Shown: positions 42,227 to 59,872, counted from the first letter of the stretch. The stretch: 60,138 nucleotides of DNA from Patescibacteria group bacterium (GCA_022709565.1 JAKLIO010000002.1:1-60138), one strand, 5' to 3'. The notes: generated from the sequence alone by a model not told the origin. Made by a program: numbers and translations.

Positions 42227-42269
42227 TCAATCCCCACCCAAAAACAGCCTTTTCTTGGGCTGTTTTAAA

Positions 42270-44981: not shown

Positions 44982-45022
44982 ATTTTATTTTATCAATTTA
45001 TATTTTTATTATACCACAGACA

Positions 45023-45134
45023 GGGGGAATCTCACGCGCTCGCTTTCGCTCGCTTTTCAAACCCCTCGGTTTGAATAATTCCGCCACGGGAAAACCTAGG
45101 TTTTCCCGACCCCTTTCCTCGTTCGATTTCTCCC
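45023..45134 (-). repeat. tRNA-linked conserved element, copy 1, downstream of tRNA-Gly(UCC). Its distal end repeats GATTCCCCCT from the tRNA T arm.
   Basis: Shares the core GGAAAGGGGTCGGGAAAACCTAGGTTTTCCCG..GG.GGAA.TATT.AAACCG...GGTTT.AAAAGCGA with 51357-51477 and 59718-59800. A 33-nt run is identical to copy 2. Confidence 0.8.
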
Positions 45135-45181
45135 ACCCAAAAAATAAAAACTCTCCTTCTGGGAGAGTTTTTATTTTTTTG

Positions 45182-45253
45182 AGCGGGTAGGGGGAATCGA
45201 ACCCCCATCTCAACCTTGGAAGGGTCGCATAAGAGCCATTATACTATACCCGC
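45182..45253 (-). tRNA. tRNA-Gly (anticodon UCC)
   Basis: Hand-folded cloverleaf: acceptor GCGGGTA/TACCCGC, anticodon stem CGACC/GGTTG with loop CTTCCAA, T arm GGGGG-TTCGATT-CCCCC. Confidence 0.85.
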
Positions 45254-45258
45254 TTTTA

Positions 45259-45930
45259 TTAAATTTGATCTAATGAACTTTCTATCCAACCCATAATTCT
45301 ACGATGCAATTTTACTCCAAAATTAGAATTGCCCTTGCAAACAGCAGAAATGTGAGCAGTTCCGAACGGCAATTTTTTTCTATTTTTAGTAGCTTTATTT
45401 TTTCTCAAATCTACCTGTGTCTTTCTGAAATTTTCGACTGATAATTTTGTGACTTTACGCCAATATGATTCGCACTTTTTCACATCACAATCTGGATACA
45501 CATGAATCATAACAGTTAAATTTTCATTTTTCAACCCACAGCAATCTTTAAACCATTTAATTGCCAACTTTATTATTTTCGGATCAGAGTTTATAACTCT
45601 AACAATATCATGCGTTTTGGATCCTTCGCCCATATACAATCCGAGTCCGATCATCCATAAATCTTTTTTATTTAGCACCCCTAATTCTTCTTTAGCTTCT
45701 TTTTTTATTTGAGCTATATCCTTGACTCTTTTGTTATGCTTGATTCTGCCTGATTTCAGAGGTCCAGTTTTTATTCTTTCCCAAACCTTTTCATTTGGTT
45801 CAAAAGGAACTTCCTTGAGCCACGAACTTAATGTACTTTTGCTGATTTTTATCTGCTTCAATATCAAACCATAGGAATATCCCCTTTTTCTCAAACTCAT
45901 GGCCTTATTTTTTATATGCATATCCTTCAT
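45259..45930 (-). CDS. HTH plus LAGLIDADG-like (homing-endonuclease-like) protein
   Basis: 223 aa with an N-terminal resolvase-type HTH (LRKRGYSYGLILKQIKISKSTLSSWLK) and an LWMIGLGLYMGEGSK motif resembling LAGLIDADG. Its stop codon lies 5 nt upstream of the tRNA-Gly 5' end. Confidence 0.45.
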   Translation of the reverse strand: MKDMHIKNKAMSLRKRGYSYGLILKQIKISKSTLSSWLKEVPFEPNEKVWERIKTGPLKSGRIKHNKRVKDIAQIKKEAKEELGVLNKKDLWMIGLGLYMGEGSKTHDIVRVINSDPKIIKLAIKWFKDCCGLKNENLTVMIHVYPDCDVKKCESYWRKVTKLSVENFRKTQVDLRKNKATKNRKKLPFGTAHISAVCKGNSNFGVKLHRRIMGWIESSLDQI

Positions 45931-46198
45931 ATATTCATTGTAGCATATAATATAGGTCAGTACAATTTTTCAAAAAGCTATTTTTTGACATTTTTAAACT
46001 CTCCCTATTATACCCAAAAATACTTTATTGTCCAGTCTTGAATTGCGTTTGCGCGTTTGAAAACCGTCGAAACCCAATCCCTGTTTAATCCCCGCTAAGC
46101 TATTGACAAAAATTTGATTTGGGTATATGGTACCCGGTCATGGAAAATATGACAAATCGGGTTAAAAATCCGGTTTTAATAATTTTTTAATTAACCAT

Positions 46199-46723
46199 AT
46201 GCGAAAAATCAAGTTTTTATTCCTGGCTTTGTTTCTTTTGCTGCCGTTTTCTTCTGCAGACGCCTGCAGTGTGCGCCAGCCGGCCAAATCTTATATAAAC
46301 AGAATCCATAAGATTATTGGCGGCGAAAAACCGAAGCTTGTGATTGAAAGCGGAAAGGATAAAGAAATAGCCGCTTTCTATGACGGAAAGGCTATCCATA
46401 TTTATAAGGGAGACTACAAAGGCAGCTGCGGCAATGAAACCCCCTACCTAAAATCGGTTATTGCTCATGAATACGCCCATCATGCTGAAAAAAAGTTTAA
46501 AAGTGTCGCAAAGCTTAAGGGTGAAAAATTAGCCTATGTTGCGGAGCATGCCATTGGAGATTCCATTTTCGGAGATGATATCGAATATGACAATGATAAG
46601 GATCTCAAGCATCCGAAAGCCTATGAAGCCATAACAAAAATGATATTCAAAAAGCAAAGTAAGAAAAATGACTTCGCCAAAAATAATACTTTATATTTCA
46701 AAAAACACCGAAGCAACAAATAA
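46199..46723 (+). CDS. Secreted HExxH metalloprotease-like protein
   Basis: Signal peptide (FLFLALFLLLPFSSADA) and a zinc motif (VIAHEYAHH). Confidence 0.55.
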   Translation: MRKIKFLFLALFLLLPFSSADACSVRQPAKSYINRIHKIIGGEKPKLVIESGKDKEIAAFYDGKAIHIYKGDYKGSCGNETPYLKSVIAHEYAHHAEKKFKSVAKLKGEKLAYVAEHAIGDSIFGDDIEYDNDKDLKHPKAYEAITKMIFKKQSKKNDFAKNNTLYFKKHRSNK

Positions 46724-46733
46724 TTCATAAAAG

Positions 46734-46763
46734 AACCGCCTCGATACTTGAGGCGGTTTTTTT
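46734..46763. terminator. Bidirectional terminator
   Basis: AACCGCCTC-gatactt-GAGGCGGTT followed by TTTTTT. Confidence 0.75.
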
Positions 46764-46776
46764 ATGCAAAATTTTT

Positions 46777-47310
46777 TCAATAAGATAGCGTAAACCGCCA
46801 AAGGTATTCTTTGCAATGCTTGGCATAATCAATACCGATTCGCCTGCCCACCACAATAGATTTCTTTGAAATTTTTTGGGCGGGCTTCTCGATGTATAAA
46901 TTTCCTTTTTTTGTTATGTCTTTCCCATTCAGTTTCCGATCTATTTTCAAAACTTTGCAAAGCTTCCCTGGACCATTGGTTTTTTTATAATCAATGCCTT
47001 CTATTTTTACCGCCCTGATTAATACAGCGGCCGGAAAATCTTTTTTCTCCGTCACAATATTAAGACAATGATACATGCCATAAATCATATAGATATAGGC
47101 ACGTCCCGCGACGCCAAACATAAGTTCCGTTCGCGGCGTTCTGCCTTTGGATGCATGCGAAGCTAAATCATCTTCGCCCATATAGGCTTCCGTTTCGGTG
47201 ATCATGGCTTTTATTGTTCTGCTCCCGATTTTTCTGATCAAAAAACAGCCAAGCAAATCCTTGGCAACATTCAATGTATTTCGATTGTAAAAACCGCGTT
47301 TTAAAATCAT
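46777..47310 (-). CDS. DNA-3-methyladenine glycosylase (MPG/AAG family)
   Basis: LNVAKDLLGCFLIRK...ITETEAYMGEDDLASHASKGRTPRTELMFGVAGRAYIYMIYGMYHCLNIV. Confidence 0.85.
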   Translation of the reverse strand: MILKRGFYNRNTLNVAKDLLGCFLIRKIGSRTIKAMITETEAYMGEDDLASHASKGRTPRTELMFGVAGRAYIYMIYGMYHCLNIVTEKKDFPAAVLIRAVKIEGIDYKKTNGPGKLCKVLKIDRKLNGKDITKKGNLYIEKPAQKISKKSIVVGRRIGIDYAKHCKEYLWRFTLSY

Positions 47311-48467
47311 ATTATTTGTTTTTTATGCTCTATCGCCTCCGCATAAACCGCCAGCATTTTTTCCGCTGAGGCGGAAGCAGTATATTTTTCCCGAGCAATT
47401 CTCGATGATTCAGCCGACATTTTCTGGCGCAGCGCTGCGTCATCCAAAAGTTTTTGCACAGCTTCTATAAATTTATTTTTTTCTTCCGCAGTCAAAAATC
47501 CATTCACATTTTCCTCCACTAAACTTTCAATACCGGTCGCTTTGACTGCCACAATTGGAAGACCGGAATACATAGCTTCAGTTATGATCATACCTTGCGT
47601 TTCCGATTTGGATGCATAGACAAAAATATCGCCGGCCGCATAATAATTCTTGATTTCCTCTGCTTCGACCAAACCGACGAAAATTATTTGCTGGTCTAAA
47701 TTTCTTTTTTGAGCTTCTTTTTCGAGTTCTGCCTTGAGATATCCATCGCCGACCAGCACGAATTTTGTTTTGGGATTTTTTTGCAAAACATCCGCCACCG
47801 ATTCAAAAAGAAAACTGATATTTTTTTCTTCCGTCAGGCGCGAAACCAACAGCAGCACAGTTTCATCATCTTTTATTTGATATTTTTCGCGGATTTTTTT
47901 TCGGTTTGAGCCGGAAAAACATTTTTCATCAATGCCGGTTGCCACCGGAAAAATTTTATTAACCACGCCCCAGTTTTTAAGGATTGGTTCAATTGACTGC
48001 GTCGGCACAATCACACTGTCAGCCTGATTGGCATATTTGACAGCTTTTTTAATTATCCAACCAGCTGTTAATTTGGACGGTAAAAATGGCACGAAATTGG
48101 TATATTTGTCATACAGCGTATGCCAAGTAAAGATCAAAGGGATATTTTTTTTCTTAGCCCATTTCATGGCGGCTGATCCCAGGAGATTCGGATGGTGCGA
48201 ATGAATAATGTCTAAATCAAGTTTTTCAATAATCCTATCCATTTTGCGTGAATATGGAATGCCCAACGGCAAACGGAATTTTATTTCAATATCCACTGAG
48301 AGATAACGAAAAACGTTTTTATTCGTATCTTGATAGTCGGAATAATTCGGAGCGAAAACAAAAACCGTGTGGCCACGTTTTTCAAATTCTTTGCGAAAAG
48401 TTTCCACCGACATCGGCACCCCATAGATATTCGGCAGATAATTATTGGTGAAAAAAGCAATACGCAT
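47307..48467 (-). CDS. Glycosyltransferase family 4 (GT-B)
   Basis: MRIAFFTNNYLPNIYGV start. The C-terminus has the EX7E-type region (SKSETQGMIITEAMYSGLPIVA). An alternative start lies at 48488. Confidence 0.8.
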   Translation of the reverse strand: MRIAFFTNNYLPNIYGVPMSVETFRKEFEKRGHTVFVFAPNYSDYQDTNKNVFRYLSVDIEIKFRLPLGIPYSRKMDRIIEKLDLDIIHSHHPNLLGSAAMKWAKKKNIPLIFTWHTLYDKYTNFVPFLPSKLTAGWIIKKAVKYANQADSVIVPTQSIEPILKNWGVVNKIFPVATGIDEKCFSGSNRKKIREKYQIKDDETVLLLVSRLTEEKNISFLFESVADVLQKNPKTKFVLVGDGYLKAELEKEAQKRNLDQQIIFVGLVEAEEIKNYYAAGDIFVYASKSETQGMIITEAMYSGLPIVAVKATGIESLVEENVNGFLTAEEKNKFIEAVQKLLDDAALRQKMSAESSRIAREKYTASASAEKMLAVYAEAIEHKKQII

Positions 48468-48469
48468 AC

Positions 48470-48600
48470 TAGAAATGACAAATTTCAAATTTCCAATGAC
48501 AAATCAATTTCAAAATCCAAAGTTCAAATTTTTGACATTTAGTCATTTGGATTTGATTAGAAATTCGTCATTTGTCATTTGAAATTACAAAAAATACTTA
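48470..48600. repeat. AT-rich imperfect palindrome of the CAAATGAC / TTCCAATGAC word family
   Basis: gaaatgacaaatttcaaatttccaatgacaaatcaatttcaaaatccaaag faces tttgacatttagtcatttggatttgattagaaattcgtcatttgtcatttgaaatt. Related words occur at 36745-36790 and inside tsaD (53295-53325 and 53555-53610). Confidence 0.6.
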
Positions 48601-48616
48601 AATAAAAAAACACCTG

Positions 48617-49450
48617 TTACTTAATTTCTTTCAGAAATTCTAATATGTCCGTAAAAACGTGTTCATTTTTAATATCCGAAATAAATGTATGGTAGGCTCT
48701 GTTTATATATTTCTTCTTTTTTATATCTGAGCTGATTTTTTCATATATCTTATCCATGCTTCCATGTGAAACAACATGATCCTGTTTGGATTGAATCAAA
48801 AAACAAGGCTGTTTTATTTCCGCAAATTTTTCTCTGACTGCTTTTACTAGCTTTAAGACTTCCAAAGCGCTTCTGGTGGAATATTTTTGGTAGGCAATAA
48901 CGCGGGTAATTGTGGTGGTGGCGCCAAATGTCGGCGGATAGAATTTCTTGTTATATTTTTTGAACGGCAAAATTAATTTTCCCCACATTTCCAATATGCT
49001 TTCGAGTTTGATTTTGTACGGAGTTGCCATCAGCACCAATCCTTTTGTTTGCGGTCTTTGGAGTGCCAAAAGAATTGCCAAACTGGCGCCGATCGATGTC
49101 CCGCCAATGTAAACTTCCCCGCATTCTTTCTGCAGCTCGTCATAAGCTTTCAGCAAATCAGCCAGCCAGTCCTGATAGGTCACATTCTCCAAATCTTCCG
49201 GCTGAGTACCATGGCCTCTCAGCATTGGTCCGGAAACCGTGAAGCCTTCTTCACTCAGATATTTTCCCAATCTTCTCACTTCATAAGCGGTGGATGTCCA
49301 GCCATGAACCAGCAGCACCCCTTTGCCGTTATTGCCTTGGAAATAGAAAGGTTGATTAACTAAATCTTTTTCATCTTTAAAAATCAGCTCCGGATCGGCA
49401 AAAATAATGTTCTTAGCTTTATTGATAAATTTTACAATTTTTGGAGTCAT
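48617..49450 (-). CDS. Alpha/beta hydrolase (esterase/lipase-like)
   Basis: HGWTS, the nucleophile elbow GTSIG, and D/H residues near the C-terminus (QDHVV, AYHTF). Confidence 0.75.
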   Translation of the reverse strand: MTPKIVKFINKAKNIIFADPELIFKDEKDLVNQPFYFQGNNGKGVLLVHGWTSTAYEVRRLGKYLSEEGFTVSGPMLRGHGTQPEDLENVTYQDWLADLLKAYDELQKECGEVYIGGTSIGASLAILLALQRPQTKGLVLMATPYKIKLESILEMWGKLILPFKKYNKKFYPPTFGATTTITRVIAYQKYSTRSALEVLKLVKAVREKFAEIKQPCFLIQSKQDHVVSHGSMDKIYEKISSDIKKKKYINRAYHTFISDIKNEHVFTDILEFLKEIK

Positions 49451-49554
49451 TGCTTAATAACTTTAATAACCGATATGCCTTAATCTTAGTCTTTCCCCTG
49501 TTTTTTGCAAGAAAAAAACTGCCCTAATCGCAGTCTTTAAAAATGTCTTAATTT

Positions 49555-50163
49555 TTAATTGGAATTATTATTCTCCCGCAAAAGTTGCCTGGACTGGTAT
49601 TTTTTATAAAGCGTAATGCCCATAAAAGAAGCGACAGCCACAGCAGTAATAATCCAGCCCGCCCAGCTGATATATTCTTTCATGCTTTTCCAAAGATAGC
49701 CATAGAAATAGCCCATGGCCACTAATGATCCGCTCCAAACAATTCCGCCCAAAAAAGAATATTTCAGAAATTTTTTAAAATCCATTTTCACAATTCCGGC
49801 CGCCGTGAATGTCGCCCAGCAAAGACCGACTGTTGATTTTACGGCAAAAATAGTTTTACCGCCGTGTCTTGTGAAATATTTTTCCATTCGGAGCACCAAC
49901 GATTCGGTGATGCCGATATGCTTTCCGATTTTTCTCACAAAATGCATGCCGTATTTGTAGCCTATCCAATAGAGAATAACGTCTCCAAGCATATCCCCCA
50001 GAACCGAAAGCACAAAAACCCAAGGCCAAAAAAATGCGCCCATGGAAGCCAGCATGGCTGAAATCAAAGTCACTACCGGCCCTTCGAGAGTCATCAGTGG
50101 CAGCATGGCAAAGTAGCCATAATGCCGAAGGAATTCAAAGATGTGTTGTCCAGCCTGATCCAT
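49555..50163 (-). CDS. DedA-family membrane protein
   Basis: Multi-pass membrane protein with the DedA pattern (G..A.....E.P.... and LGD.....IGYK.G). ATG at 50163. Confidence 0.7.
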   Translation of the reverse strand: MDQAGQHIFEFLRHYGYFAMLPLMTLEGPVVTLISAMLASMGAFFWPWVFVLSVLGDMLGDVILYWIGYKYGMHFVRKIGKHIGITESLVLRMEKYFTRHGGKTIFAVKSTVGLCWATFTAAGIVKMDFKKFLKYSFLGGIVWSGSLVAMGYFYGYLWKSMKEYISWAGWIITAVAVASFMGITLYKKYQSRQLLRENNNSN

Positions 50164-50321
50164 AGGCTTATTATAACGCAAAAACAACAAAAAATAAACA
50201 CTCTGACTGTGAGCTTCTTCGCTTGTTTTATTTAGCAGACTAAATGCTCACCGGATGGAACCAGCTCATGAAAAAATAAAGGGATATTTTGGCTTTGCTA
50301 CATAAAGAGGGCCAGAATAGG

Positions 50322-50587
50322 AAAAATGCTTAATATAAGCCCTTTCAAATTCTTCAACAAATGTAGCCCTATGCCATATTGCCCAATTTAAGCCATTTAT
50401 TTTTCCGTCCAAAAAGTTGATTTTGGAGATTTTTGCCAAAAAATTGGCCGAAAAATTTCAGAAAATCGCAAAATAAAAAAAGTCCTTCGACTTTTTCAGG
50501 TGAAAATCTTCGGACGAGTGCAAAACTGGCCACACAATACCGTTTTGCTTTATTTAAGCCTTTTCAAATTCTTCGACAAATGTAGCC
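50322..50587 (+). repeat. Non-coding repeat of about 266 bp, copy 2
   Basis: Collinear with 43777-44042 and in the same orientation. Confidence 0.85.
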
Positions 50588-50642
50588 TCCTCTTTTTTGC
50601 CTAATTTAAAGCTTTTCCATATCTCGGGAAAAAGCCACTCAA

Positions 50643-50906
50643 CTACTTCGTAAATAGCCCGCAATAGCATTTTCCGTCTTTCGCAATCTCTTCTTTATGG
50701 AAAGCACAGGGGCAGATTTTTTTCGCATCTTCTTCCTGATTTCCGCTTATCCGCCGGCAAGGGCAATATTTTTGGCCTGTTTTCTCCTCATTTCTCAATA
50801 ATCCGTCCAATACCCTTTCAACAGTCTTTTTGTCCGGATTTAGCTGAAATCCGTTTTCTTTGGCGTATTCCAAATATTTTTCAATCATTTCTTCTTTTTT
50901 ATCCAT
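50643..50906 (-). CDS. Ferredoxin:thioredoxin-reductase catalytic-subunit-like protein
   Basis: QKYCPCRRISGNQEEDAKKICPCAFHKEEIAKDGKCYCGLF (the CPC...CPC...CYC pattern). ATG at 50906; the track ORF is 5'-extended. Confidence 0.7.
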   Translation of the reverse strand: MDKKEEMIEKYLEYAKENGFQLNPDKKTVERVLDGLLRNEEKTGQKYCPCRRISGNQEEDAKKICPCAFHKEEIAKDGKCYCGLFTK

Positions 50907-50937
50907 ATATTTTTGTAATTGAGATTTTAATAGTTGG

Positions 50938-51255
50938 CTAAATATTTTTTTCCAGCCATTCTTTGATTTCAAGTTCAGGCTTAAATCCAGTGAAGGAATC
51001 GACCGGCTCGCCATTTTTGAAGAGCACTACCATTGGGATACGATCAACTTTAAATTTCTGGGCATTCAGCTGATTATCATCAACATTAGCTTTCAGCAAA
51101 ACAATTTTTTCTTCGAATTCCTTTTCTATTTTTTCCAAAACCGGCGCCAGCATTGAGCAGGGTTCGCACCAAGTCGCGTAAAAATCAACCAAAGACAGCT
51201 TTTCTGTTTTTTGAATTTCTTTTTCAAAATTATCGTCAGTTAAAATAATAGACAT
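50938..51255 (-). CDS. trxA: Thioredoxin
   Basis: 105 aa with active site WCEPC and the thioredoxin-fold pattern (VDFYATWCEPCSMLAPVLE...DRIPMVVLFKNG). Confidence 0.9.
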   Translation of the reverse strand: MSIILTDDNFEKEIQKTEKLSLVDFYATWCEPCSMLAPVLEKIEKEFEEKIVLLKANVDDNQLNAQKFKVDRIPMVVLFKNGEPVDSFTGFKPELEIKEWLEKNI

Positions 51256-51356
51256 ATTTTTGTTCTTTATTAATTTATATTTTTATTATACATTGTATGC
51301 CAATGTATTTCCAGAAGTATTAAAAAAAGAGTCTTATAAAAAACTCGTTTTGATGC

Positions 51357-51477
51357 TGGTACCGCTACGGGGAAATCTCACGCACTCACTGTGTTCGCTT
51401 TTGAAACCTCTCGGTTTCAATACTTCCACCCCGGGAAAACCTAGGTTTTCCCGACCCCTTTCCTTGTTCGATTTTCC
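51357..51477 (-). repeat. tRNA-linked conserved element, copy 2, downstream of tRNA-Glu. Its distal 17 nt (51357-51373) duplicate the tRNA-Glu 3' end including CCA.
   Basis: tggtaccgctacgggga at 51357-51373 is identical to 51524-51540. The core is as in copies 1 and 3. Confidence 0.85.
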
Positions 51478-51523
51478 TTAGCATAAAATTAAAAAATCCC
51501 CATGCTGAGAATTTTTAATTTTT

Positions 51524-51598
51524 TGGTACCGCTACGGGGAATCGAACCCCGGTTTACAGGATGAAAACCTGCTGTCCTAACCACTAGACGATAGCGGC
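51524..51598 (-). tRNA. tRNA-Glu (anticodon UUC), CCA encoded
   Basis: Hand-folded cloverleaf: acceptor GCCGCTA/TAGCGGT, anticodon stem GCAGG/CCTGT with loop TTTTCAT, T arm CGGGG-TTCGATT-CCCCG, 3' ACCA. Confidence 0.88.
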
Positions 51599-51606
51599 AA
51601 ATTATT

Positions 51607-51852
51607 CTATTTTAACATTTCTTTTATTTTCTTTCTTCCAGAGGAAGATTTCCAATATTTTTCAGCTTCCCTGGCAAGTTTTATGTGAATACATTTCTCA
51701 ATTATTTGCCAACTAAAATTTCCGAAGTTCTTTGTTGTTTTTACTTCTCCATGCGAATGCTCTTTTATCCTCCTTTCTAAATTATCAGAAAAACCGACGT
51801 AAGTTTTTGTTTTATTTTCATTAATCAGCAAATATACATAATAATATTGCAT
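51607..51852 (-). CDS. GIY-YIG nuclease-family small protein
   Basis: YYVYLLINENKTKTYVGFSDNLERRIKEHSHG...LAREAEKYWK matches the GIY-YIG/URI pattern. Its ATG abuts a tRNA-Glu 5' fragment and its stop lies 8 nt upstream of the intact tRNA-Glu. Confidence 0.8.
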   Translation of the reverse strand: MQYYYVYLLINENKTKTYVGFSDNLERRIKEHSHGEVKTTKNFGNFSWQIIEKCIHIKLAREAEKYWKSSSGRKKIKEMLK

Positions 51853-51931
51853 AACCTGCTGTCCCCGCCTCGCGTCGACGAGCGGTCGTTTCCGCGAGTC
51901 GAGGCGGGCTAACCACTAGACGATAGCGGCA
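51853..51931 (-). pseudogene. Duplicated 5' half of tRNA-Glu (nt 1-33), interrupted by the 45-nt palindromic element
   Basis: 51853-51863 plus 51909-51931 are identical to 51566-51599. A 45-nt insert lies between them. Confidence 0.85.
51864..51908. mobile_element. 45-nt GC-rich palindromic element, reference copy with base-exact boundaries
   Basis: cccgcctcgcgtcgacgagcggtcgtttccgcgagtcgaggcggg has terminal 9-bp inverted repeats CCCGCCTCG/CGAGGCGGG, G/C at 34 of 45 positions, and no stop codon in any of the six frames. Confidence 0.9.
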
Positions 51932-52058
51932 TTTATAAAACGCCTGAAACAATAACAGTGGAAAGCTTAACACGAAAAAAATAAATAGTCAAAGGTCTTA
52001 TAAAAAAGGCTCTGCAAGCAACAAATTAGTTCAAAAATACTCCTCGGCTGGAGTATTT

Positions 52059-52811: not shown

Positions 52812-52910
52812 ATGATATTATCGTTTAACGATTGCATATGAGAACAGGCCAGAAATATGCCTACAACGCTTCTTTCAAGGGGAACTATATATTATAATAA
52901 TATCACACTT

Positions 52911-54098
52911 ATGTCAAATATACTAATCCTCGCTGTGGAAACATCTTGCGATGAAACCGCTGTTTCTGTCTTGCAATTTCAAGGCAATGATTTAACCATT
53001 CTCGCCAATGAGGTTTCTTCACAGGTAAAGCTGCATGCCAAATGGGGCGGTGTTGTGCCAAATTTGGCCGCACGGGAACATGTGAAAAATATTGTGCCTA
53101 TTTTTAAGCTGGCTTTAAAAAATGCCGGGGTTTCAATGCAAGATATTGATTTTATTGCGGTCACGGAAGGGCCTGGGCTTATTCCCGCTCTCATGGTTGG
53201 CAACAATTTCGCCAAAACACTGGCTTACCTTTGGGGAAAACCGCTGATTGGAATTCATCATATTGAAGGACACATCTACGCGAACTTTGTTCGCGAAATG
53301 ACAAATGATAAATTTCAAATGACAAAAGCTAAGAAGCTAATGACGCTGAAAGCTAATGAAGCTATTTTTCCTGTTTTGTGTTTGGTAGTTTCCGGTGGTC
53401 ATACGCAATTAGTCTTGATGAAAGACCATTTAAAATATGAAATTATCGGCCAAACATTGGATGACGCAGTCGGCGAAGCCTTTGATAAAGTGGCCAGAAT
53501 TTTAGGAATCGGCTATCCCGGAGGACCAGTCGTTGCCCAAAGAGCAATGGAATTTCCAATGACCAATGACCAATTTCCAAACAAATCACAAAAATCAAAT
53601 TCAAAATCTAAAGAATACGAAATACAAGATACAAGATACGAGATACAATTCCCGAGGCCTATGTTAAATAAGCAGGGATTTAATTTTTCTTTTTCCGGGC
53701 TGAAAACGGCAGTTTTGTATGAAACCAAAAAACACCCTGAATTATTAAGTGATAAAAAATATATTGCCGCTGTCTGTCATGAATTTCAGCAAGCCACAAT
53801 TGATGTTTTGATTGCCAAAACCTTGAAAGCTGCGGAAAAATTCAAGCCAAAAACGATTATGCTAGCCGGTGGTGTCAGCGCCAATAAAGAATTGCGAGAA
53901 CAAATGGGCGCAGCTATCTCAAAATCCATACCAAATACTAAATACTGTATACCAGATACTAGTCTGACCGGCGACAACGCCGCCATGATAGCTGCTGCTG
54001 CCGCTTTCCGCTGGCAAAAGATGAACGAATCTCAAAAGAAAAAAGCTCTGAATGGTTGGGAAAATCTCCAGCCATATGCGAATTTGAAATTAAAGTAA
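52911..54098 (+). CDS. tsaD: tRNA N6-adenosine threonylcarbamoyltransferase TsaD (Kae1/Gcp), with two in-frame insertions made of repeat sequence
   Basis: ILAVETSCDETAVSV, HAKWGGVVPNLAAREH, IAVTEGPGLIPALMVG, GIHHIEGH, LVVSGGHTQL, DDAVGEAFDKVARILG, FSFSGLKTAV, LAGGVSANKELR, TGDNAAMIA. ATG at 52911. Confidence 0.9.
   Translation: MSNILILAVETSCDETAVSVLQFQGNDLTILANEVSSQVKLHAKWGGVVPNLAAREHVKNIVPIFKLALKNAGVSMQDIDFIAVTEGPGLIPALMVGNNFAKTLAYLWGKPLIGIHHIEGHIYANFVREMTNDKFQMTKAKKLMTLKANEAIFPVLCLVVSGGHTQLVLMKDHLKYEIIGQTLDDAVGEAFDKVARILGIGYPGGPVVAQRAMEFPMTNDQFPNKSQKSNSKSKEYEIQDTRYEIQFPRPMLNKQGFNFSFSGLKTAVLYETKKHPELLSDKKYIAAVCHEFQQATIDVLIAKTLKAAEKFKPKTIMLAGGVSANKELREQMGAAISKSIPNTKYCIPDTSLTGDNAAMIAAAAAFRWQKMNESQKKKALNGWENLQPYANLKLK
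53291..53365 (+). repeat. tsaD insertion 1 (peptide REMTNDKFQMTKAKKLMTLKANEA)
   Basis: gaaatgacaaatgataaatttcaaatgacaaaagctaagaagctaatgacgctgaaagctaatgaagc combines CAAATGAC words (as at 48470-48600) with AAGCTAA words (as in the intergenic trailers at 28181-28216 and 36419-36447). Confidence 0.6.
53555..53650 (+). repeat. tsaD insertion 2 (peptide PMTNDQFPNKSQKSNSKSKEYEIQDTRYEIQ)
   Basis: ttccaatgaccaatgaccaatttccaaacaaatcacaaaaatcaaattcaaaatctaaag resembles 48490-48530. It is followed by the ATAC-periodic unit gaatacgaaatacaagatacaagatacgagatacaa. Confidence 0.65.
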
Positions 54099-54143
54099 TT
54101 TTTTCTTGAAATAATGCCCTCAAACTGATATTATAAGGATACT

Positions 54144-56834
54144 ATGGAAAAAGAACTGCCTAAAATTTACGACCCCAAAGCAGTCGAAGATAAGATATAC
54201 AAACGCTGGGAAGAAAGCGGGTTTTTTCAGCCTGAAAATTTAAAAGATACAAAAGGAGTTTATTGTGATGTTTTGCCTCCGCCAAATTCCAATGGCGAAC
54301 TCCATGTCGGCCATGCCAGTGGTTATACTGTTATGGATATTTTTGGCCGCTATAACCGCATGAACAACAAGAAGACACTTCTCTTGCCTGGCAAGGATCA
54401 CGCCGGCATCCAAACCCAAGTTGTGTTTGAAAAAATATTAGAGAATGAACGCGGAACTTCTCGCCACGAATTAGGCCGAGAAAAATTTTACAAAGAGTCC
54501 TACGATTTTTGCATTGATCGCGCGAACTATATGCGCTCGCAGGAAAAAAAGATTGGACTAAGTGCAGATTGGTCACGCGAAAAATTCACGCTTGATCCGG
54601 ATGTTTTAAAAATAGCGTTGGAAACGTTCGTAAAAATGGAAAAGGATGGTTTGATTTACAAAGGCAAAAGAATTGTTAATTGGTGTCCTCGCTGCGCGAC
54701 TGCTTTGGCTGATGTTGAACTACTTCACAAAGAAACTCCCGGAAAACTTTTCTACATAAAATATCCGCTGGAAAACAGTCCTGAATTTGTCACAGTTGCG
54801 ACTACTCGTCCGGAAACAATGTTGGGCGACAGTGCTGTGGCCGTCAATCCAGAGGATGAAAGATACGAATCGCTAGTTGGAAAAAATATTATTTTGCCTC
54901 TGCAAAACAGGATTATACCAATCATAAAAGACAGGCGTGTTGATAAAATATTTGGCACCGGTGCTGTAAAAATTACACCAACCCATGATCCGCTCGACTG
55001 GCAGATCGGAAAAGATCATAATCTTGAAGAAATTCAAGTGATTGATGAAAAAGCAACCATTACTGATCTGGGTGGAGCTTATGCGGGACTTAGTGTCAGT
55101 GAAGCACGAGAACAAATTATTAAAGATTTGGAAAAACTGAACCTGCTTGAAAAAACGGAAGACATGACTCATTCTGTTACTATTTGTGAGCGCTGCAAAA
55201 CAGTCATAGAACCCTTAACATCTGACCAATGGTTTATTAATGTTGATGCAGAAAAATTTTCATTAAAGAAAAAAGCTATTGCAGCGATTGAAAAAGGTGA
55301 AATTGAAATTTTTCCGGAAAACTTTAAAAAAATTCTGATAAGTTGGTTTGAAAATTTGCATGACTGGTGCATTAGCCGACAAATTTGGTGGGGACCGCAA
55401 TTTCCGGTTTGGTATTGCAAAAATTGCGGCGAAGAAAAGTATATTGTTTCCTTGGAAAAACCTGCTCAATGCCCACATTGCCAAGGAACAGAACTAACCC
55501 AAGATGAAAATACTTTTGATACTTGGTTCACATCCGGACAATGGGTCCACACCACTCTAAAATCACACGGCAATGATTTTGATACATTCTACCCTTCAAC
55601 AATGATGGTTACGGGTCGCGATCTCCTGTTTTTCTGGGCTTCCCGCATGATTATGATGAGCTTATATGCTACCGGCAAAGTGCCATTTGAAAATTTATTT
55701 TTTACCGGCTTAGTTCGTGACAAAGACGGACACAAATTTTCCAAATCGAGAGGCAATGGAATTGATCCATTGCTGGCGATTAATAAATTCGGGGCTGATG
55801 CTTTGCGAATGAGCTTGATTATGGATAGCGCCCCTGGACAAGATTCGAGACTTTCGGAAGAAAAAATAGAAACATTCAGAAACTTCACCAACAAACTCTG
55901 GAATATTTCACGTTATTGTTTGTCACAAGAAAATTTTAAGTTGGAAGAAAAAATAGTCAAAAAAGATATAAAAACTATCACGGATGAATGGATAGTACAG
56001 CGCGTTGATGAAACAAACCAAGAAATTAATAATCTTTTTGAAACCAAACAAATTTCCCTTGCAGCTGATACGCTTAAAGCTTTTACTTGGAATGAATTTG
56101 CTGATTGGTATGTTGAAACGAACAAGATTGAAAAAAATCAAAAAGTTCTTGGATATGTTTTAGATAAAATTTTAAAAATGTGGCATCCATTCATGCCTTT
56201 TGTAACCGAACACATTTGGACATTAGTAAATGAAAAGAATCTGCTCATGATTTCAAAATGGCCTCAGCATGAAAAATATTCGCACATAAATTCATCTTCA
56301 AAGGGACCTGAAAAATTTAAATTAATACAAGAAATTGTAACAAACATACGTGATGCAAGCTTTGCTGGCACAAACAAACCAAAAAAGGAAGTTACTATAG
56401 ATATAGCGAATCAAAAACAATACGAGAATACTGAAATGGAAAAACTCTTGAAAGAGCAGGAGCACTTAATTAAAAACCTTCGTACTGGTGTCGAAACCTT
56501 AAAAATAGTTTCTACTGGAAAAATAATAAAAGACGCTATGCATAGAGTTGTTCGAGATATAAATATTTATGTTGCACCAGCAACAGGTGACTTTACTGGC
56601 GGAACTTTTCAGATAGCTGATGGTATTGTATCGCAAAAAGTAATAGACATAGTTAAGGCCGAAAAAGAAATCGCAAATGTAGAAAAATATTTGGCTGGGC
56701 TTAATGCGCGCCTTGAAAATAAGGAATTTATGAGTAAAGCATCCAAAGATTTCATATCTAAAATAGAGAAATCAAAAAGACATAATGATGCCAAGCTTGT
56801 AGAACTTAAAAAGCATCTCTCTTCACTTAAATAA
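54144..56834 (+). CDS. valS: Valine--tRNA ligase
   Basis: 896 aa, class I synthetase with HIGH (PNSNGELHVGHA) and KMSKS (KFSKSRGN) motifs, an editing domain and a C-terminal coiled coil. Confidence 0.95.
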   Translation: MEKELPKIYDPKAVEDKIYKRWEESGFFQPENLKDTKGVYCDVLPPPNSNGELHVGHASGYTVMDIFGRYNRMNNKKTLLLPGKDHAGIQTQVVFEKILENERGTSRHELGREKFYKESYDFCIDRANYMRSQEKKIGLSADWSREKFTLDPDVLKIALETFVKMEKDGLIYKGKRIVNWCPRCATALADVELLHKETPGKLFYIKYPLENSPEFVTVATTRPETMLGDSAVAVNPEDERYESLVGKNIILPLQNRIIPIIKDRRVDKIFGTGAVKITPTHDPLDWQIGKDHNLEEIQVIDEKATITDLGGAYAGLSVSEAREQIIKDLEKLNLLEKTEDMTHSVTICERCKTVIEPLTSDQWFINVDAEKFSLKKKAIAAIEKGEIEIFPENFKKILISWFENLHDWCISRQIWWGPQFPVWYCKNCGEEKYIVSLEKPAQCPHCQGTELTQDENTFDTWFTSGQWVHTTLKSHGNDFDTFYPSTMMVTGRDLLFFWASRMIMMSLYATGKVPFENLFFTGLVRDKDGHKFSKSRGNGIDPLLAINKFGADALRMSLIMDSAPGQDSRLSEEKIETFRNFTNKLWNISRYCLSQENFKLEEKIVKKDIKTITDEWIVQRVDETNQEINNLFETKQISLAADTLKAFTWNEFADWYVETNKIEKNQKVLGYVLDKILKMWHPFMPFVTEHIWTLVNEKNLLMISKWPQHEKYSHINSSSKGPEKFKLIQEIVTNIRDASFAGTNKPKKEVTIDIANQKQYENTEMEKLLKEQEHLIKNLRTGVETLKIVSTGKIIKDAMHRVVRDINIYVAPATGDFTGGTFQIADGIVSQKVIDIVKAEKEIANVEKYLAGLNARLENKEFMSKASKDFISKIEKSKRHNDAKLVELKKHLSSLK

Positions 56835-56836
56835 AC

Positions 56837-57415
56837 ATGAAAAACGCATTTGAATCTTTTTTATGGGGAATAATTGCGGCTTTTGGCGCCTTGATTGTAG
56901 AAATCATAGTCTTTTTAGGCATTTCTGCTTACAAAAATATTGAATTTTCTTTTGATATTTTTTTTGCGGTTCCTTTATTTTTCTTGATTTCTGCCTGCAT
57001 TGAGGAGTTTTTCAAATATATTATTATTTCCAAAAAGGTTGAATCTTTTTCTTTGGAAAAATCCTACATTGTAAATTCTATGTTGGTTGGTTTGGGATTT
57101 TTCGGGGTTGAATTGGGATTTATTTATATGTCCTCAAGCTTATTACCGGCTTGGAACTTATTAACAGAGATCGGAATCTTGCATATAGGTACTGCCGGAC
57201 TGATTGGCTATATTGTCGCCATCAGAAATCCAGGCAAGTTTTCAACTTTTTTGTCTGCTTTTTCGATTGCCGTGATCTTCCATGCCGCCTATAACCTTTT
57301 AGCTATGAACAGGGAGTTTTTGCAGAACTACCTGGTTTTTGCCCTGCTTGGACTTTTAGTTTTGATAAATATCATAAATCTTCTGCGCATCAGCAGTAAA
57401 ATAAACCAGGATTAA
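56837..57415 (+). CDS. PrsW-like intramembrane protease-family membrane protein
   Basis: Multi-pass membrane protein with EEFFK and HAAYN motifs (the E-E-x-x-K ... H-x-x-x-N pattern). Confidence 0.5.
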   Translation: MKNAFESFLWGIIAAFGALIVEIIVFLGISAYKNIEFSFDIFFAVPLFFLISACIEEFFKYIIISKKVESFSLEKSYIVNSMLVGLGFFGVELGFIYMSSSLLPAWNLLTEIGILHIGTAGLIGYIVAIRNPGKFSTFLSAFSIAVIFHAAYNLLAMNREFLQNYLVFALLGLLVLINIINLLRISSKINQD

Positions 57416-57552
57416 AGGTGACTTGCAAAAGACTAGAAATCGTCATATAATATTTATGTAAGAAAAGTATCAAATAATTCTTAACTTAGGGGAAATTAGT
57501 GGCCTTTTTGCTGCTTTTGAGCAACTTTCGGCCAGTGATCCACAATTATACT

Positions 57553-58059
57553 ATGTTAAAGACAAAAAAATCATTTTTTGAACGCGTAACAGGCGCCACT
57601 TCAGTCAACCGACCTGGCGATCGTGAAGATTCTAGGCCTGTTTTTTCCGAAGAAGAAGAAACTGAGATGATCATGAATTCCGAACCGAGAAATATTTTTG
57701 TTGAAGATGAAGGCTATGCCGGCAATGCTGAAGGCCAGCTTACGATAGACGTCTACCAGACTGACAACGAAATTGTCATTAAGTCTACGATTGCGGGAGT
57801 AAAACCTGAAGATTTAGATGTTGCTATCAACAATGACATGGTAACAATCAAGGGGGAAAGGAAAAATGAAGAGGTGGTAAACGCTGAAAATTACTATTAT
57901 CAGGAATGCTATTGGGGCGGGTTCTCGCGTTCAGTAGTTCTGCCAGTGGATATTCTTTCCGAAAAATCTGAAGCATCCCTTAAAAACGGAATTTTAACCA
58001 TTCGCCTGCCTAAAGCAGATACTACCAAAATCAAGAAGATTCAGGTTAGAGGATTCTAA
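57553..58059 (+). CDS. Hsp20/alpha-crystallin small heat-shock protein
   Basis: QLTIDVYQTDNEIVIKSTIAGVKPEDLDVAINNDMVTIKGERK...GFSRSVVLPVDILSEKSEASLKNGILTIRLPK. ATG at 57553. Confidence 0.88.
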   Translation: MLKTKKSFFERVTGATSVNRPGDREDSRPVFSEEEETEMIMNSEPRNIFVEDEGYAGNAEGQLTIDVYQTDNEIVIKSTIAGVKPEDLDVAINNDMVTIKGERKNEEVVNAENYYYQECYWGGFSRSVVLPVDILSEKSEASLKNGILTIRLPKADTTKIKKIQVRGF

Positions 58060-58096
58060 AAACAGCTTGTCAGGCTGCAGCTTTTCAGCTTATTAG

Positions 58097-58127
58097 GAAA
58101 CTTCAATCGAAAGATTGAAGTTTTTTT
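58097..58127 (+). terminator. hsp20 terminator
   Basis: GAAACTTCAATC-gaaa-GATTGAAGTTT followed by TTTT. Confidence 0.75.
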
Positions 58128-58220
58128 CTCCAAGGTTGTAAGCTGCCATCAGAGTCCAATTGAGACTACAAATCAATCGGAATCCTTGTTATTGATTAAA
58201 AAATACAGTATTCTTAAAGC

Positions 58221-59498
58221 ATGGTTAAAAACTATTTTTTATTACTTTTATTGTTGTCCGCTCTTTTGCCGTTCTCCGTATCGGCCGAAGAAGTTTTAGA
58301 CAAAAAATCTACTTCCGGAGAGAAAGCTGCTCTTGTTTTAAATATTGGTCAACATACGGAAACTGTATCAGAAAGCACTTTGGCTGGGTGGACGCAACAT
58401 TCTAATATTTTTACATTATCATCTTCCAAGCGATCAGAGTTTGAAAATATTTATTATTGTCCGGTAAATAATATTTTTTGCGCATTAACGCTAACTGAAA
58501 TGCAGAGGCATCATATTCGGCTTTTGCCTGAAAAAAATATTAACGTTGATAAGATAAGGTTGCATGTTGATGATATTGCCCGAAATGTTAACAGGGATCC
58601 CATTGACGCAAAATTCCAAATCGAAGATGGAAAAGTAACCACGTTTTCAGAACCACAAAATGGCCTCACTCTAAATACTGAAAAGAGTGTTGAACTGATC
58701 ATGTCTGCGCTTCAAACGAATCAGGAAAAATATCCTCAGACGCTCAATTTGCCTTTTGATGTAAAAGAACCGGCAATAGGTTATGAAAATGTTAATAGTC
58801 TTGGAATAAATTCGCTCATAGGAGAAGGCGTTTCCAATTTTAAAGGTTCCACCAAAAGCAGAATCCATAATGTAACTGTCGGCGCCAGCCGATTTAACGG
58901 AGTGCTTATAAAGCCCGGCGAAGAATTTTCCTTTGTGAAAAATCTTGGCGAGGTTGACGCTGAACATGGATATTTGCCGGAGCTGGTCATTAAACACGAT
59001 AAAACTGAACCGGAATTTGGTGGAGGCATTTGCCAAGTTTCCACAACAGCCTTCAGAGCAGCAATTTACTCAGGCTTAAAAATTACAGCCAGACGCAATC
59101 ATGCCTATCCTGTTTCTTATTATAATCCGCAAGGCATGGATTCAACCGTCTATATTCCCAACCCAGACTTGCGTTTTATTAATAATACTCCAGGGCACAT
59201 CCTTATCCAGACAAGCATAGAAGGCACAATTTTAAAATTTCAATTCTATGGCACGGATGACGGCCGAAAGACAACTATTGATGGCCCCAAGGTGCTTGAA
59301 AAAAATCCGGATGGTTCAATGAAGACGACTTTTACTCAGCATGTTTTTGATAAGAACGGTGATGAAATAATTAAAGATGTTTTCAACAGCTCCTACAATT
59401 CTCCAGACAAATATCCCCATCCAGGTGAAGAAATATTTACCACTAAACCCGACGATTGGTCAAAAAAACAGTGGGAGGAATATAAAAAATCTCGCTAA
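58221..59498 (+). CDS. VanW-family protein, secreted
   Basis: Signal peptide, then FSFVKNLGEVDAEHGY...GGGICQVSTTAFRAAIYSGLKITARRNH, the VanW core pattern. Confidence 0.8.
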   Translation: MVKNYFLLLLLLSALLPFSVSAEEVLDKKSTSGEKAALVLNIGQHTETVSESTLAGWTQHSNIFTLSSSKRSEFENIYYCPVNNIFCALTLTEMQRHHIRLLPEKNINVDKIRLHVDDIARNVNRDPIDAKFQIEDGKVTTFSEPQNGLTLNTEKSVELIMSALQTNQEKYPQTLNLPFDVKEPAIGYENVNSLGINSLIGEGVSNFKGSTKSRIHNVTVGASRFNGVLIKPGEEFSFVKNLGEVDAEHGYLPELVIKHDKTEPEFGGGICQVSTTAFRAAIYSGLKITARRNHAYPVSYYNPQGMDSTVYIPNPDLRFINNTPGHILIQTSIEGTILKFQFYGTDDGRKTTIDGPKVLEKNPDGSMKTTFTQHVFDKNGDEIIKDVFNSSYNSPDKYPHPGEEIFTTKPDDWSKKQWEEYKKSR

Positions 59499-59548
59499 TA
59501 AATCGTTAAAAACAAATAAAATACTGATTTATAGGCATTTATTCTCCA

Positions 59549-59577
59549 TTGACTAATTGGGTGTCTTTTGATATAAT
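59549..59577 (+). promoter_or_regulatory. Promoter of the tRNA-Lys/tRNA-Arg unit
   Basis: TTGACT (59549-59554), a 17-nt spacer, then TATAAT (59572-59577), 22 nt upstream of the tRNA-Lys 5' end. Confidence 0.6.
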
Positions 59578-59598
59578 AGTTTAGTTGTTGAAAAATTA

Positions 59599-59671
59599 GC
59601 GTCGTTAGCTCAGTTGGTAGAGCAGATCCCTCTTAAGGATATGGTCGGGGGTTCAAATCCCTCACGACGCA
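59599..59671 (+). tRNA. tRNA-Lys (anticodon CUU)
   Basis: Hand-folded cloverleaf: acceptor GCGTCGT/ACGACGC, D arm GCTC-AGTTGGTA-GAGC, anticodon loop CTCTTAA, T arm GGGGG-TTCAAAT-CCCTC. Confidence 0.85.
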
Positions 59672-59717
59672 CATTTTTATCTCATAACCACAATAAATTT
59701 CAATTGAAAATTGAAAT

Positions 59718-59800
59718 GGGAAAGGGGTCGGGAAAACGGGAGTTTTCCCGGGGTGGAAATATTAAAACCGCAAGGTTTTAAGGAGGAGCAAAGCGACGAC
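59718..59800 (+). repeat. tRNA-linked conserved element, copy 3, between tRNA-Lys and tRNA-Arg
   Basis: gggaaaggggtcgggaaaacgggagttttcccggggtggaaatattaaaaccgcaaggtttta...aaagcga matches the cores of copies 1 and 2. It is in the same orientation relative to its upstream tRNA and directly abuts the tRNA-Arg 5' end. Confidence 0.75.
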
Positions 59801-59872
59801 GCCCTCATAGTTCAATGGATAGAACACCAGCCTTCTAAGCTGGTTATGTAGGTTCGATTCCTACTGAGGGTA
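59801..59872 (+). tRNA. tRNA-Arg (anticodon UCU)
   Basis: Hand-folded cloverleaf: acceptor GCCCTCA/TGAGGGT, D arm GTTC-AATGGATA-GAAC, anticodon stem CCAGC/GCTGG with loop CTTCTAA, T arm GTAGG-TTCGATT-CCTAC. Confidence 0.85.

Follow-up and report, generated by a model that had tools for sequence, protein, structure and literature searches.

A folded RNA core flanked by duplicated gene ends in Patescibacteria: a candidate integrative module without open reading frames

Why does one non-coding segment occur three times within a short genomic stretch, each time behind a tRNA gene, and why does the 3' end of that tRNA reappear beyond two of the three? The stretch is a 60,138-nt segment from a Patescibacteria group bacterium (GCA_022709565.1 JAKLIO010000002.1:1-60138; hereafter the window). 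An initial annotation of the window noticed the three copies and suggested that they had been inserted into the 3' region of tRNA genes with regeneration of the tRNA. We compared the window copies with approximately 200 relatives and regard the element, on balance, as probably an integrative module of approximately 150-250 bp that lacks an open reading frame (ORF), is built around a structured RNA, and is widespread at the ends of conserved genes in Parcubacteria-type Patescibacteria. The alternative that the core belongs to a family of small-RNA genes serving the host is the main rival, and the two are not mutually exclusive.

A folded core shared by the window copies and their relatives

The 32-nt core pattern GGAAAGGGGTCGGGAAAACNNNNGTTTTCCCG matched the window at exactly three sites (Table 1) and gave no match in 100 shuffles of it, none being expected by chance. 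A covariance model built from relatives returned the same three sites with 89-99 bits and no fourth copy, in agreement with the three repeats reported to share one core. Each copy lies downstream of a co-oriented tRNA gene, namely Gly-UCC (copy 1), Glu-UUC (copy 2), and Lys-CUU (copy 3), and no ORF was found in the element, which had been described as non-coding. Most of the details reported earlier were reproduced: copies 1 and 2 have a 33-nt run in common; 51357-51373 is identical to 51524-51540, one extra T lengthening this 17-nt match to GATT(T)CCCCGTAGCGGTACCA; copy 1 ends with the tRNA-Gly-derived GATTCCCCCT; and copy 3, ending at 59800, abuts tRNA-Arg, which starts at 59801. The hairpin said to separate every copy from its tRNA was recovered as a terminator-like linker for copies 1 and 2, whereas that of copy 3 abuts the core and is not comparable.

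These three copies belong to a large family. We scanned a set comprising one genome per prokaryotic species with the pattern GGAAAGGGGTC N18-30 GGNGGAANTATT, in which only two unpaired stretches were fixed, and obtained 81 loci. One of them (L062; L numbers designate individual loci or contigs) is a chance match, and all the true loci are in metagenome-assembled genomes of Patescibacteria, namely Moraniibacteriota, Jorgensen-, Harrison-, Sungii-, and Colwellbacteria, Paceibacteria, and the 'Parcubacteria group', several genomes carrying three or four loci each. The same pattern found at least 116 further loci in a metagenome collection and none in viral contigs. Altogether, the pattern scans yielded approximately 200 further copies from Parcubacteria-type genomes and metagenome contigs, and a covariance model of 80 copies added approximately 10 more divergent ones in the same loci with an identical layout. 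About 70% of the copies touch a tRNA gene on the same strand. Across the genome set and the metagenome matches listed, every tRNA gene within 100 nt upstream is co-oriented with the element and no copy adjoins one on the opposite strand. The earlier statement that copies are always tRNA-adjacent holds for this majority, and the ends of rpsI, rpoD, secA, fusA, and rnhA are used as well. A full-text literature search found no published description of the element (the paper on the TIGR-Tas system was checked and is unrelated to it), and we rate it as a new, previously undescribed kind whose mechanism is read from sequence alone.

The core is approximately 85-100 nt long and contains two conserved hairpins (P2 and P3), both predicted independently by RNAalifold, and a variable third one (P4). 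P2 and P3 are the hairpins noticed initially, and both covary in an alignment of 80 core sequences: a P2 pair (columns 25-39) is AU in 68 sequences and GC in 11, and the closing pair of P3 (columns 57-72) is GC in 39, AU in 25, and CG in 15. In addition, a long-range Watson-Crick pair (columns 47-66) connects a junction base with the last base of the P3 tetraloop (CG in 44, UA in 35, and other in 1), and junction column 52 tracks the closing pair of P3 in 80 of 80 sequences, behaving like part of a base triple or an alternative pair. Note that the covarying columns other than column 52 were not fixed by the search pattern, in which column 52 is N. The two tertiary features also hold in 92 distinct copies from the metagenome matches listed. 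G-U pairs occur 14 times, on the tRNA-sense strand only, and A-C pairs never do, so that the folded strand is the tRNA-sense strand.

P4 ranges from a GCGAAGC mini-hairpin to stems of approximately 30 nt, its two sides being complementary within each copy (e.g., GCAC/GTGC, CAGC/GCTG, and CGC/GCG), and is bracketed by GA...GA, with which tandem G.A pairs would be possible. The succession of P3, AAG or AAA, GA, the P4 stem, and GA fits a kink-turn (k-turn) or k-junction at the level of sequence pattern only. The predicted structure is best explained as a four-way junction with conserved P2 and P3, a variable P4 closed by tandem G.A, and the tertiary pair and triple. The element matches no known RNA family: across the whole window, Rfam 15 at the gathering threshold reported only tRNAs, and no transfer-messenger RNA, RNase P, signal recognition particle, 6S, hepatitis delta virus (HDV), hammerhead, hairpin, or twister RNA. 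With E-values up to 10, copies 1 and 2 gave only low-scoring chance matches on the terminator hairpin or the tRNA. The topology was judged, by eye and with Rfam, unfit for a hairpin, hammerhead, or HDV-like ribozyme.

Arms, displaced gene ends, and layouts

Three layouts were distinguished. About half of all copies, including copies 1 and 2, are armed and lie downstream of a tRNA gene, in the order tRNA, a linker of 0-80 nt (often with a terminator-like hairpin), 5' arm, core, and 3' arm. About 20% of the copies (15 in the genome set and 21 among the metagenome matches listed) are of an armless form, type B, to which window copy 3 belongs; here the core, with neither arms nor repeat, follows a small hairpin or begins at a distance of 2-7 nt from an upstream tRNA. 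The third layout comprises copies without a nearby tRNA gene. The general geometry is fixed: gene body, S1 (the gene end), linker, S' (the inverted first 8-20 nt of S), core, S2, and original flank, S being the segment repeated as S1 and S2.

The tRNA remnants are systematic. When the 3' flank was compared with the T-stem 3' strand, acceptor 3' strand, and discriminator of the adjacent tRNA, at least 11 of 13 positions matched in 41 of the 52 tRNA-downstream copies of the genome set, 37 of these exactly, but in only 2% of shuffled tRNA/flank pairs; the tRNA 3'-end repeat was also present in 36 of 44 tRNA-downstream metagenome copies among the matches listed. The median length of the longest repeat in the flank is 17 nt, compared with 8 nt for the control, and repeat lengths range from approximately 13 to 105 nt across copies. 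The repeat begins within the T loop (junction positions 53-57), where the junction had been placed initially. At tRNA genes S extends from the T loop (position 53 or 57) to approximately 2 nt past the discriminator, or through CCA where this is encoded, and in seven copies the repeat continues through the terminator or into a second partial unit.

The 5' arm goes beyond the initial account; in copies 1 and 2 it reads as the reverse complement, with mismatches, of the tRNA 3' end. In general the arm is complementary to the true local T loop, to the T stem, and to 3-6 acceptor positions. It pairs with the 3' arm (the start of S2) to form a closing helix, P1, that was seen in individual folds. 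The arms of one copy pair better with each other than with those of other copies (-16.8 vs -13.2 and -18.2 vs -12.9 kcal/mol). In the orthologous pair L040 and L068, the 3' arm follows the tRNA at both positions where the acceptor strand has changed, and the 5' arm carries a compensating change for one of the two. The T-loop part of the 3' arm reads GTTYR... or GTGA followed by R57, and R57 is always that of the local tRNA. S' pairs with the start of S at tRNA genes, rpoD, secA, rpsI, and fusA alike. The resulting imperfect inverted repeat recreates the target site as a duplex, and the mismatches of this hairpin recur between copies.

Three other views of the arms were rejected. An antisense guide against the tRNA does not fit an exact 3' arm and an imperfect 5' arm; P1, which as a rule extends over no more than 3-6 of the 7 acceptor positions, is no faithful mimic of the acceptor/T-stem minihelix for RNase P or aminoacyl-tRNA synthetases; and retrocopying of a mature tRNA is contradicted by 3' arms that do not systematically bear CCA when the tRNA gene is without it.

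The three window copies represent different states of one core. Copy 2 is a complete armed unit with an exact remnant, its 3' arm matching tRNA-Glu at 13 of 13 positions over the T stem, acceptor strand, and discriminator. Copy 1 is an older unit, the remnant of which has decayed into a promoter-like site: its 3' arm overlaps a TGnTATAAT (ending at 45008) of the extended -10 type for the downstream gene. The core of copy 1 differs from its orthologue in the relative L026 at one position. Copy 3 is the operon-spacer form, exactly filling the spacer between two tRNA genes, and its lack of a tRNA remnant follows from the core being configured differently there. Since position +1 of tRNA-Arg abuts copy 3, cleavage by RNase P would define its 3' end.

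The same geometry recurs at protein genes, the gene body always being on the 5' side of the element and the original flank past S2. At a sigma-70 (rpoD-like) gene (L019), S is the terminal 84 nt of the ORF, stop codon included, repeated exactly, with ATGCGCTCGCG as S'. For SecA (L014) it comprises the last 66 nt of the ORF and the 3' untranslated region (UTR), in 1.5 tandem units, and for ribosomal protein S9 (rpsI; L036 and L022) the gene 3' end. Gene starts were also used: S corresponds to codons 3-20 of the elongation factor EF-G gene, fusA (L158), where the element is antisense between rpsG and fusA, and to the 5' end of the RNase H gene rnhA (L118), in tandem units. As a separate observation, the arms of L050, L053, and L060, in two genomes, look derived from the rpsI 3' end (GCATTGGGCCAAAAAAG) but follow unrelated genes, with no flanking repeat; the whole unit including the arms seems to have been relocated, or the context rearranged.

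The fusA locus bears on the origin of the inner gene end. The working fusA gene starts MARKYPLEK and has a new upstream and ribosome-binding-site region adjoining S', whereas the displaced fragment beside rpsG starts MRKYPLEK and has the original upstream region; the two are identical over the 53-nt S only. At tRNA loci the terminators or linkers on the S1 and S2 sides are likewise unrelated despite identical S. Furthermore, L026, which is closely related to the window, has a different core, approximately 120 nt long, between tRNA-Gly-UCC and the window-type element. This sister element is exactly one unit bounded by tRNA 3'-end repeats and is absent from the orthologous site of the window; in L026 the repeats are increasingly degenerate with distance from the tRNA. 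(The sister element, at 987-1199 of L026, has several hairpins, the 5' arm GGTAAGCGGAATCGAACCCGAC, a 3' part ...GACGCGATAAAATT followed by the exact tRNA-Gly 3' end, and a terminator of its own; nothing in the window matches its 16-nt end motif.) The fusA difference, the unrelated tRNA linkers, and the L026 unit fit integration of the att/Campbell type, in which a unit of S, linker, S', and core recombines at or within S, and are at odds with a staggered cut that duplicated host sequence. We therefore regard the tRNA-proximal gene end as probably the copy brought by the element. Insertion into the tRNA 3' region with the tRNA regenerated, as initially suggested, is supported by the remnants, the T-loop junction, and the presence or absence of the sister element between close relatives.

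A simple target-site duplication, by staggered cut or target-primed, would accommodate the variable repeat lengths but is contradicted by codon 2 and the 5' UTR of fusA and by the unrelated linkers. A diversity-generating retroelement was also rejected, as the repeats show one base difference at most and no reverse transcriptase was found near the copies or in the window ORFs scanned.

Table 1. Features of the three window copies and their host loci; tRNA positions are from ARAGORN and Rfam
Feature	Position	Strand	Description
tRNA-Gly-UCC, host of copy 1	45181-45253	-	S1 (3' part from the T loop) 45181-45202
Copy 1, whole	45022-45138	-	Core pattern match 45087-45118
Copy 1 linker	45139-45180	-	A/T-flanked terminator-like hairpin between tRNA and 5' arm; orthologous linker in L026
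Copy 1 5' arm (S')	45121-45138	-	GGGTGGGAGAAATCGAAC; diverged reverse complement of tRNA-Gly T loop, T stem, and acceptor 3' strand
Copy 1 core	45036-45120	-	J1/2 GGAAAGGGGU; P2 45087-45108; J2/3; P3 45056-45075; P4 45036-45053
Copy 1 tertiary contacts	C45083-G45064; U45078 with C45073-G45058	-	Predicted pair; predicted triple
Copy 1 3' arm (decayed S2)	45022-45035	-	GTGAGATTCCCCCT; only T-loop and T-stem part left, 7/13 matches
tRNA-Glu-UUC, host of copy 2	51524-51598	-	CCA encoded; S1 51524-51547
Copy 2, whole	51357-51484	-	Core pattern match 51432-51463
Copy 2 linker hairpin	51485-51523	-	
Copy 2 5' arm (S')	51466-51484	-	ATGCTAAGGAAAATCGAAC; degenerate complement of tRNA-Glu 3' end
Copy 2 core	51382-51465	-	P2 51432-51453; P3 51401-51420; degenerate P4 51382-51398
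Copy 2 tertiary contacts	U51428-A51409; G51423 with G51418-C51403	-	Predicted pair; predicted triple
Copy 2 3' arm (S2)	51357-51381	-	GTGA + GATTTCCCCGTAGCGGTACCA; tRNA-Glu 3' end duplicated through CCA
Promoter-like site TTGACT-17-TGnTATAAT	59549-59577	+	Near-consensus; ahead of tRNA-Lys-CUU, at the start of the operon containing copy 3
tRNA-Lys-CUU, upstream of copy 3	59599-59672	+	
Small hairpin	59695-59717	+	Directly 5' of copy 3 core; often replaces the 5' arm in armless copies
Copy 3, armless type B	59719-59800	+	Core pattern match 59719-59750; P2 59729-59750; P3 59762-59781; tail GGAGGAGCAAAGCGACGAC with P4 mini-hairpin
Copy 3 tertiary pair	U59754-A59773	+	Predicted pair
tRNA-Arg-UCU	59801-59873	+	Position +1 abuts copy 3

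A possible mechanism and competing explanations

We propose that the module carries its own gene end and terminator, or its own start codon and ribosome-binding site, and would recombine with the host gene at the boundary between core and S or within S. The gene would be kept intact and its original end displaced, giving the 'remnant'. S2 and the gene body could then act as homology arms: following DNA transfer, ordinary homologous recombination would carry the unit into naive alleles. A RecA gene is present in the window. The catalyst of integration would act in trans, and the T-loop sequence common to tRNAs may ease jumps between them. The core would be transcribed together with the host gene and, in armless spacer copies such as copy 3, might be released by RNase P and tRNA 3' processing. 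Two of the candidate explanations offered initially, a tRNA-targeting miniature element and a co-transcribed structured RNA, are both supported by the comparative data.

Several patterns describe the dynamics of the family. Tandem and partial units occur, and some subfamilies are confined to one genome yet found at three different tRNAs (MFKJ: L001, L045, and L078). For other copies the nearest counterparts are at the corresponding tRNA (Met, Glu, Val-UAC, or Arg-UCU) of other genomes. The orthologous locus downstream of a VanW-domain gene (58221-59498 in the window) is arranged differently in four genomes; with E for the element, the order is Lys-E-Arg in the window, E-Arg-E-Lys-His in L016, Arg-E-remnant-Lys in L023, and E-(12-nt tRNA remnant)-E-Arg in L010. 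We also observed that contigs carrying the thioredoxin gene of the window often end within or just upstream of copy 2 (L084, L086, L087, and L088), and assemblers thus seem to break at the repeat.

No protein partner emerged from the neighborhoods. All-against-all clustering of the ORFs within 3 kb revealed no recurrent neighbor family, the most frequent one accompanying 6 of 84 copies. The window is AT-rich, with five tRNA genes and housekeeping genes including those for UvrABC, RecA, FtsK, SSB, EF-P, and a penicillin-binding protein. Pfam searches of 38 of the 43 window ORFs of at least 110 amino acids (the five unscanned ones include 28217-31801 and 31839-35291) detected housekeeping genes only, with no integrase, transposase, or reverse transcriptase; nor were TnpB, IscB, or an IS110/DEDD recombinase found among these 38 ORFs or adjoining the copies.

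A number of points weigh against an integrative origin. The 3' end of type B, ...GAC, coincides exactly with the +1 position of the tRNA that follows (15 of 15 cases), and type B cores are among the best conserved, a pattern that looks like selection on an RNA product and not like a decaying insertion. The recurrent changes in the T-loop part of the 3' arm, TC to GA and A58 to C, have no explanation under it, and it gives no account of how a lineage would acquire a new S together with a matching S'. Where distant genomes carry a copy at the same tRNA, the host gene could have been inherited vertically. Copy 2 shows no presence polymorphism, being carried by 7 of 7 near-identical strain contigs, and for this core itself we saw no recombinase, no circular form, and no pair of empty and filled sites.

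The strongest competitor, to which we give a real but clearly smaller chance, is that the core is the product of a host small-RNA gene family. The core would derive from tRNA transcription units and be trimmed by RNase P and 3' enzymes, perhaps as the RNA of a ribonucleoprotein with a k-turn-like P3-AAG-GA-P4 element; local duplication would have produced the arms and repeats as by-products, or their only role would be to close and protect the RNA. Type B copies fit this explanation well, exactly filling the spacers between tRNA genes with ends that are consistent with processing by RNase P and tRNA 3' enzymes, and copy 3 lies behind a strong promoter-like site. The near-invariance of the core across many lineages, its tertiary covariation, and the absence of mobility genes nearby agree with it as well, as does the recurrence of one haplotype at one tRNA across genomes (type B before tRNA-Met in L013, L074, and L077; downstream of tRNA-Glu in L006 and L007). 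On the other hand, exact duplicates of 53-105 nt of the rpoD, secA, fusA, and rnhA ends would have no role in an RNA gene, and the element-borne fusA end differs from the displaced one. Tandem partial units, genome-specific subfamilies at different tRNAs, and a different core that follows the same arm logic and is polymorphic between relatives (L026) speak against it too. The conserved armless copies argue that the RNA itself is under selection, and the core RNA of the integrative module may be of use to the host, or may act within the family as an expressed source or cofactor.

A bolder conjecture, which we consider unlikely, is that the core is a self-targeting guide scaffold, either RNA or folded single-stranded DNA, whose arms, complementary to both strands of the gene end, would direct a recombinase encoded elsewhere or stimulate RecA to integrate a circle of approximately 200 nt with a spare gene end. 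Such a programmable, protein-less 'gene-end-capping' element could hop between tRNAs by means of the T-loop sequence. Slightly less likely still, in our estimate, is the plainer version, in which the core is a scaffold for a guide-type RNA or a folded single-stranded DNA site and the arms specify by base-pairing the site of a recombinase encoded elsewhere, the known analogues being bridge and omega RNAs or the hairpin sites of CTX phage and integron attC. The order of site, short loop, inverted site, body, and site is what integration of a small circle with a hairpin site would leave, the hairpin is imperfect with recurrent mismatches, the 3' end of the scaffold carries 17-20 nt that match the target, and the common T-loop sequence would ease jumps. 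However, no recombinase, TnpB, IscB, or IS110 protein was detected beside the copies or in the window ORFs scanned, arms are missing from type B copies, an exact 3' arm contrasts with an imperfect 5' arm, and an active guided nuclease would cut the intact neighboring tRNA gene.

A cis-acting switch of tRNA maturation, in which the 5' arm would pair with either the tRNA 3' end or the decoy 3' arm and the state of the core would decide tRNA folding, appears very improbable. Two mutually exclusive helices (S1-S' or S'-S2) could indeed form, and the 3' arm tracks acceptor-stem changes between orthologues, but the same geometry is found at protein-gene ends, including antisense to fusA and rnhA, a terminator-like hairpin often lies between tRNA and element, and type B has no such helices. 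Least credible of all are relic attachment sites of large tRNA-integrating islands or prophages, another initial candidate: direct tRNA 3'-end repeats from the T loop are the classic attL/attR signature, but only approximately 130-170 nt separate the repeats, this segment is the conserved part and covaries as a folded strand over approximately 200 copies across the whole group, the pattern matched no viral contig, and no integrase is nearby.

Related systems, implications, and other repeats

In its manner of working, the element is most like tRNA-targeting integrative elements, as the gene is regenerated and the original end displaced, but it lacks their integrase. P4-type integrase islands and prophages, and integrase-less cis-mobilizable elements, likewise insert between the T loop and the tRNA 3' end, regenerate the tRNA, and leave the displaced end as a direct repeat; tandem accretion at one tRNA is another feature in common, seen here in L026. 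These islands are kilobases long, whereas the element measures 150-250 bp and has no integrase or ORF. Unlike them, it has a folded-RNA core with an inverted site copy beside it and also uses protein-gene ends, including 5' ends.

In topology, the closest counterparts are the folded-hairpin sites, namely attP of CTX phage and attC of integrons. There, too, an imperfect inverted repeat can rebuild a duplex target, tandem arrays occur, and the element's order of site, loop, inverted site, body, and site matches integration of a single-strand circle. The defining feature differs, since attC and CTX phage use the sites dif or attI while the sites of the element vary from copy to copy.

Miniature inverted-repeat transposable elements (MITEs) and transcribed repeats (Correia, ERIC, RUP, and BOX) resemble the element in being small, ORF-less, multi-copy, and intergenic, with RNA structure possible, and in the co-transcription that is proposed for the element. 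MITEs have constant terminal inverted repeats and fixed short duplications, whereas the arms of the element are target-derived and follow the local tRNA or gene, its repeats vary in length, and the inner copy at fusA is not the host's own sequence; MITE-type repeats are palindromic, while the core is a predicted multi-helix junction with tertiary covariation. Type B copies are comparable to the 3'ETS-leuZ and spacer RNAs of E. coli and to dicistronic tRNA-snoRNA genes of plants, which lie in tRNA operons and end at processing sites, but small RNAs from tRNA precursors are single-locus and unrepeated, without duplicated gene ends or a conserved multi-helix core. The bridge RNA of IS110 and the omega RNA of IS200/IS605 are similarly scaffolds flanked by target-matching segments, one of them at the scaffold 3' end. 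In contrast to these, no recombinase or nuclease gene adjoins the element, its arms match the same target on opposite strands, and the target is duplicated.

If the proposal is correct, the very small genomes of Patescibacteria carry an undescribed kind of element at core housekeeping genes and at a considerable share of the tRNA genes: a folded RNA of approximately 100 nt, without a gene of its own, that travels with a spare host gene end and leaves duplicated ends behind. It would then offer a testable system for the movement and persistence of ORF-less elements in minimal genomes, and for the role of a conserved new RNA fold and the processing of tRNA operons in uncultured bacteria. The family belongs in RNA family libraries, and metagenome assemblies seem to break at tRNA loci because of it. 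Annotation can be misled by the duplicated gene ends, which give rise to spurious tRNA fragments and truncated copies of rpoD, secA, or fusA.

Other repeats were noticed in the window. A second non-coding repeat of 268 nt (88% identity) lies approximately 1 kb downstream of copies 1 and 2, at 43777-44043 and 50322-50588; it contains an internal direct repeat of approximately 42-49 nt (GGCTACATTTGTCGAAGAATTTGAAAAGGCTTAAATAAAGC) spaced by approximately 219 nt, has short ORFs only, and had no Rfam match. At 42150-42323(-), after tRNA-Gly-CCC (42324-42395), we found a T-loop-like GTTCGATT, a small hairpin, and a degenerate tRNA 3' end (TTTCTCGCTCA); this flank also holds a terminator followed by a long inverted repeat (GGGGATTGACCCCGCACTAACTTTAGGC...), and it may be a decayed tRNA-end insertion of a different family. 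A GC-rich palindromic repeat of 48 nt (TCCCCGCCTCGCGTCGACGAGCGGTCGTTTCCGCGAGTCGAGGCGGGC) is present in four copies with 88-98% identity (3202-3249, 6354-6401, 10526-10573, and 51862-51909), one of them just upstream of a small GIY-YIG ORF adjoining tRNA-Glu. Three to four copies of an intergenic motif, GCC(A/G)CGGATTTGGGGAA(A)TAAAAAAACC, were seen at 22326-22383, 23247-23304, 25343-25374, and 27987-28035, next to genes without an assigned function. Finally, in two relatives (L044 at approximately 4823-4900 and L071 at approximately 604-680), a tRNA-like gene (GCCGGGTTAGCTCAGTGGTAGAGCAGAGGACTGATTTTCGG...) that was not called by ARAGORN directly follows a type B copy, and its apparently interrupted anticodon loop suggests an intron-containing tRNA.

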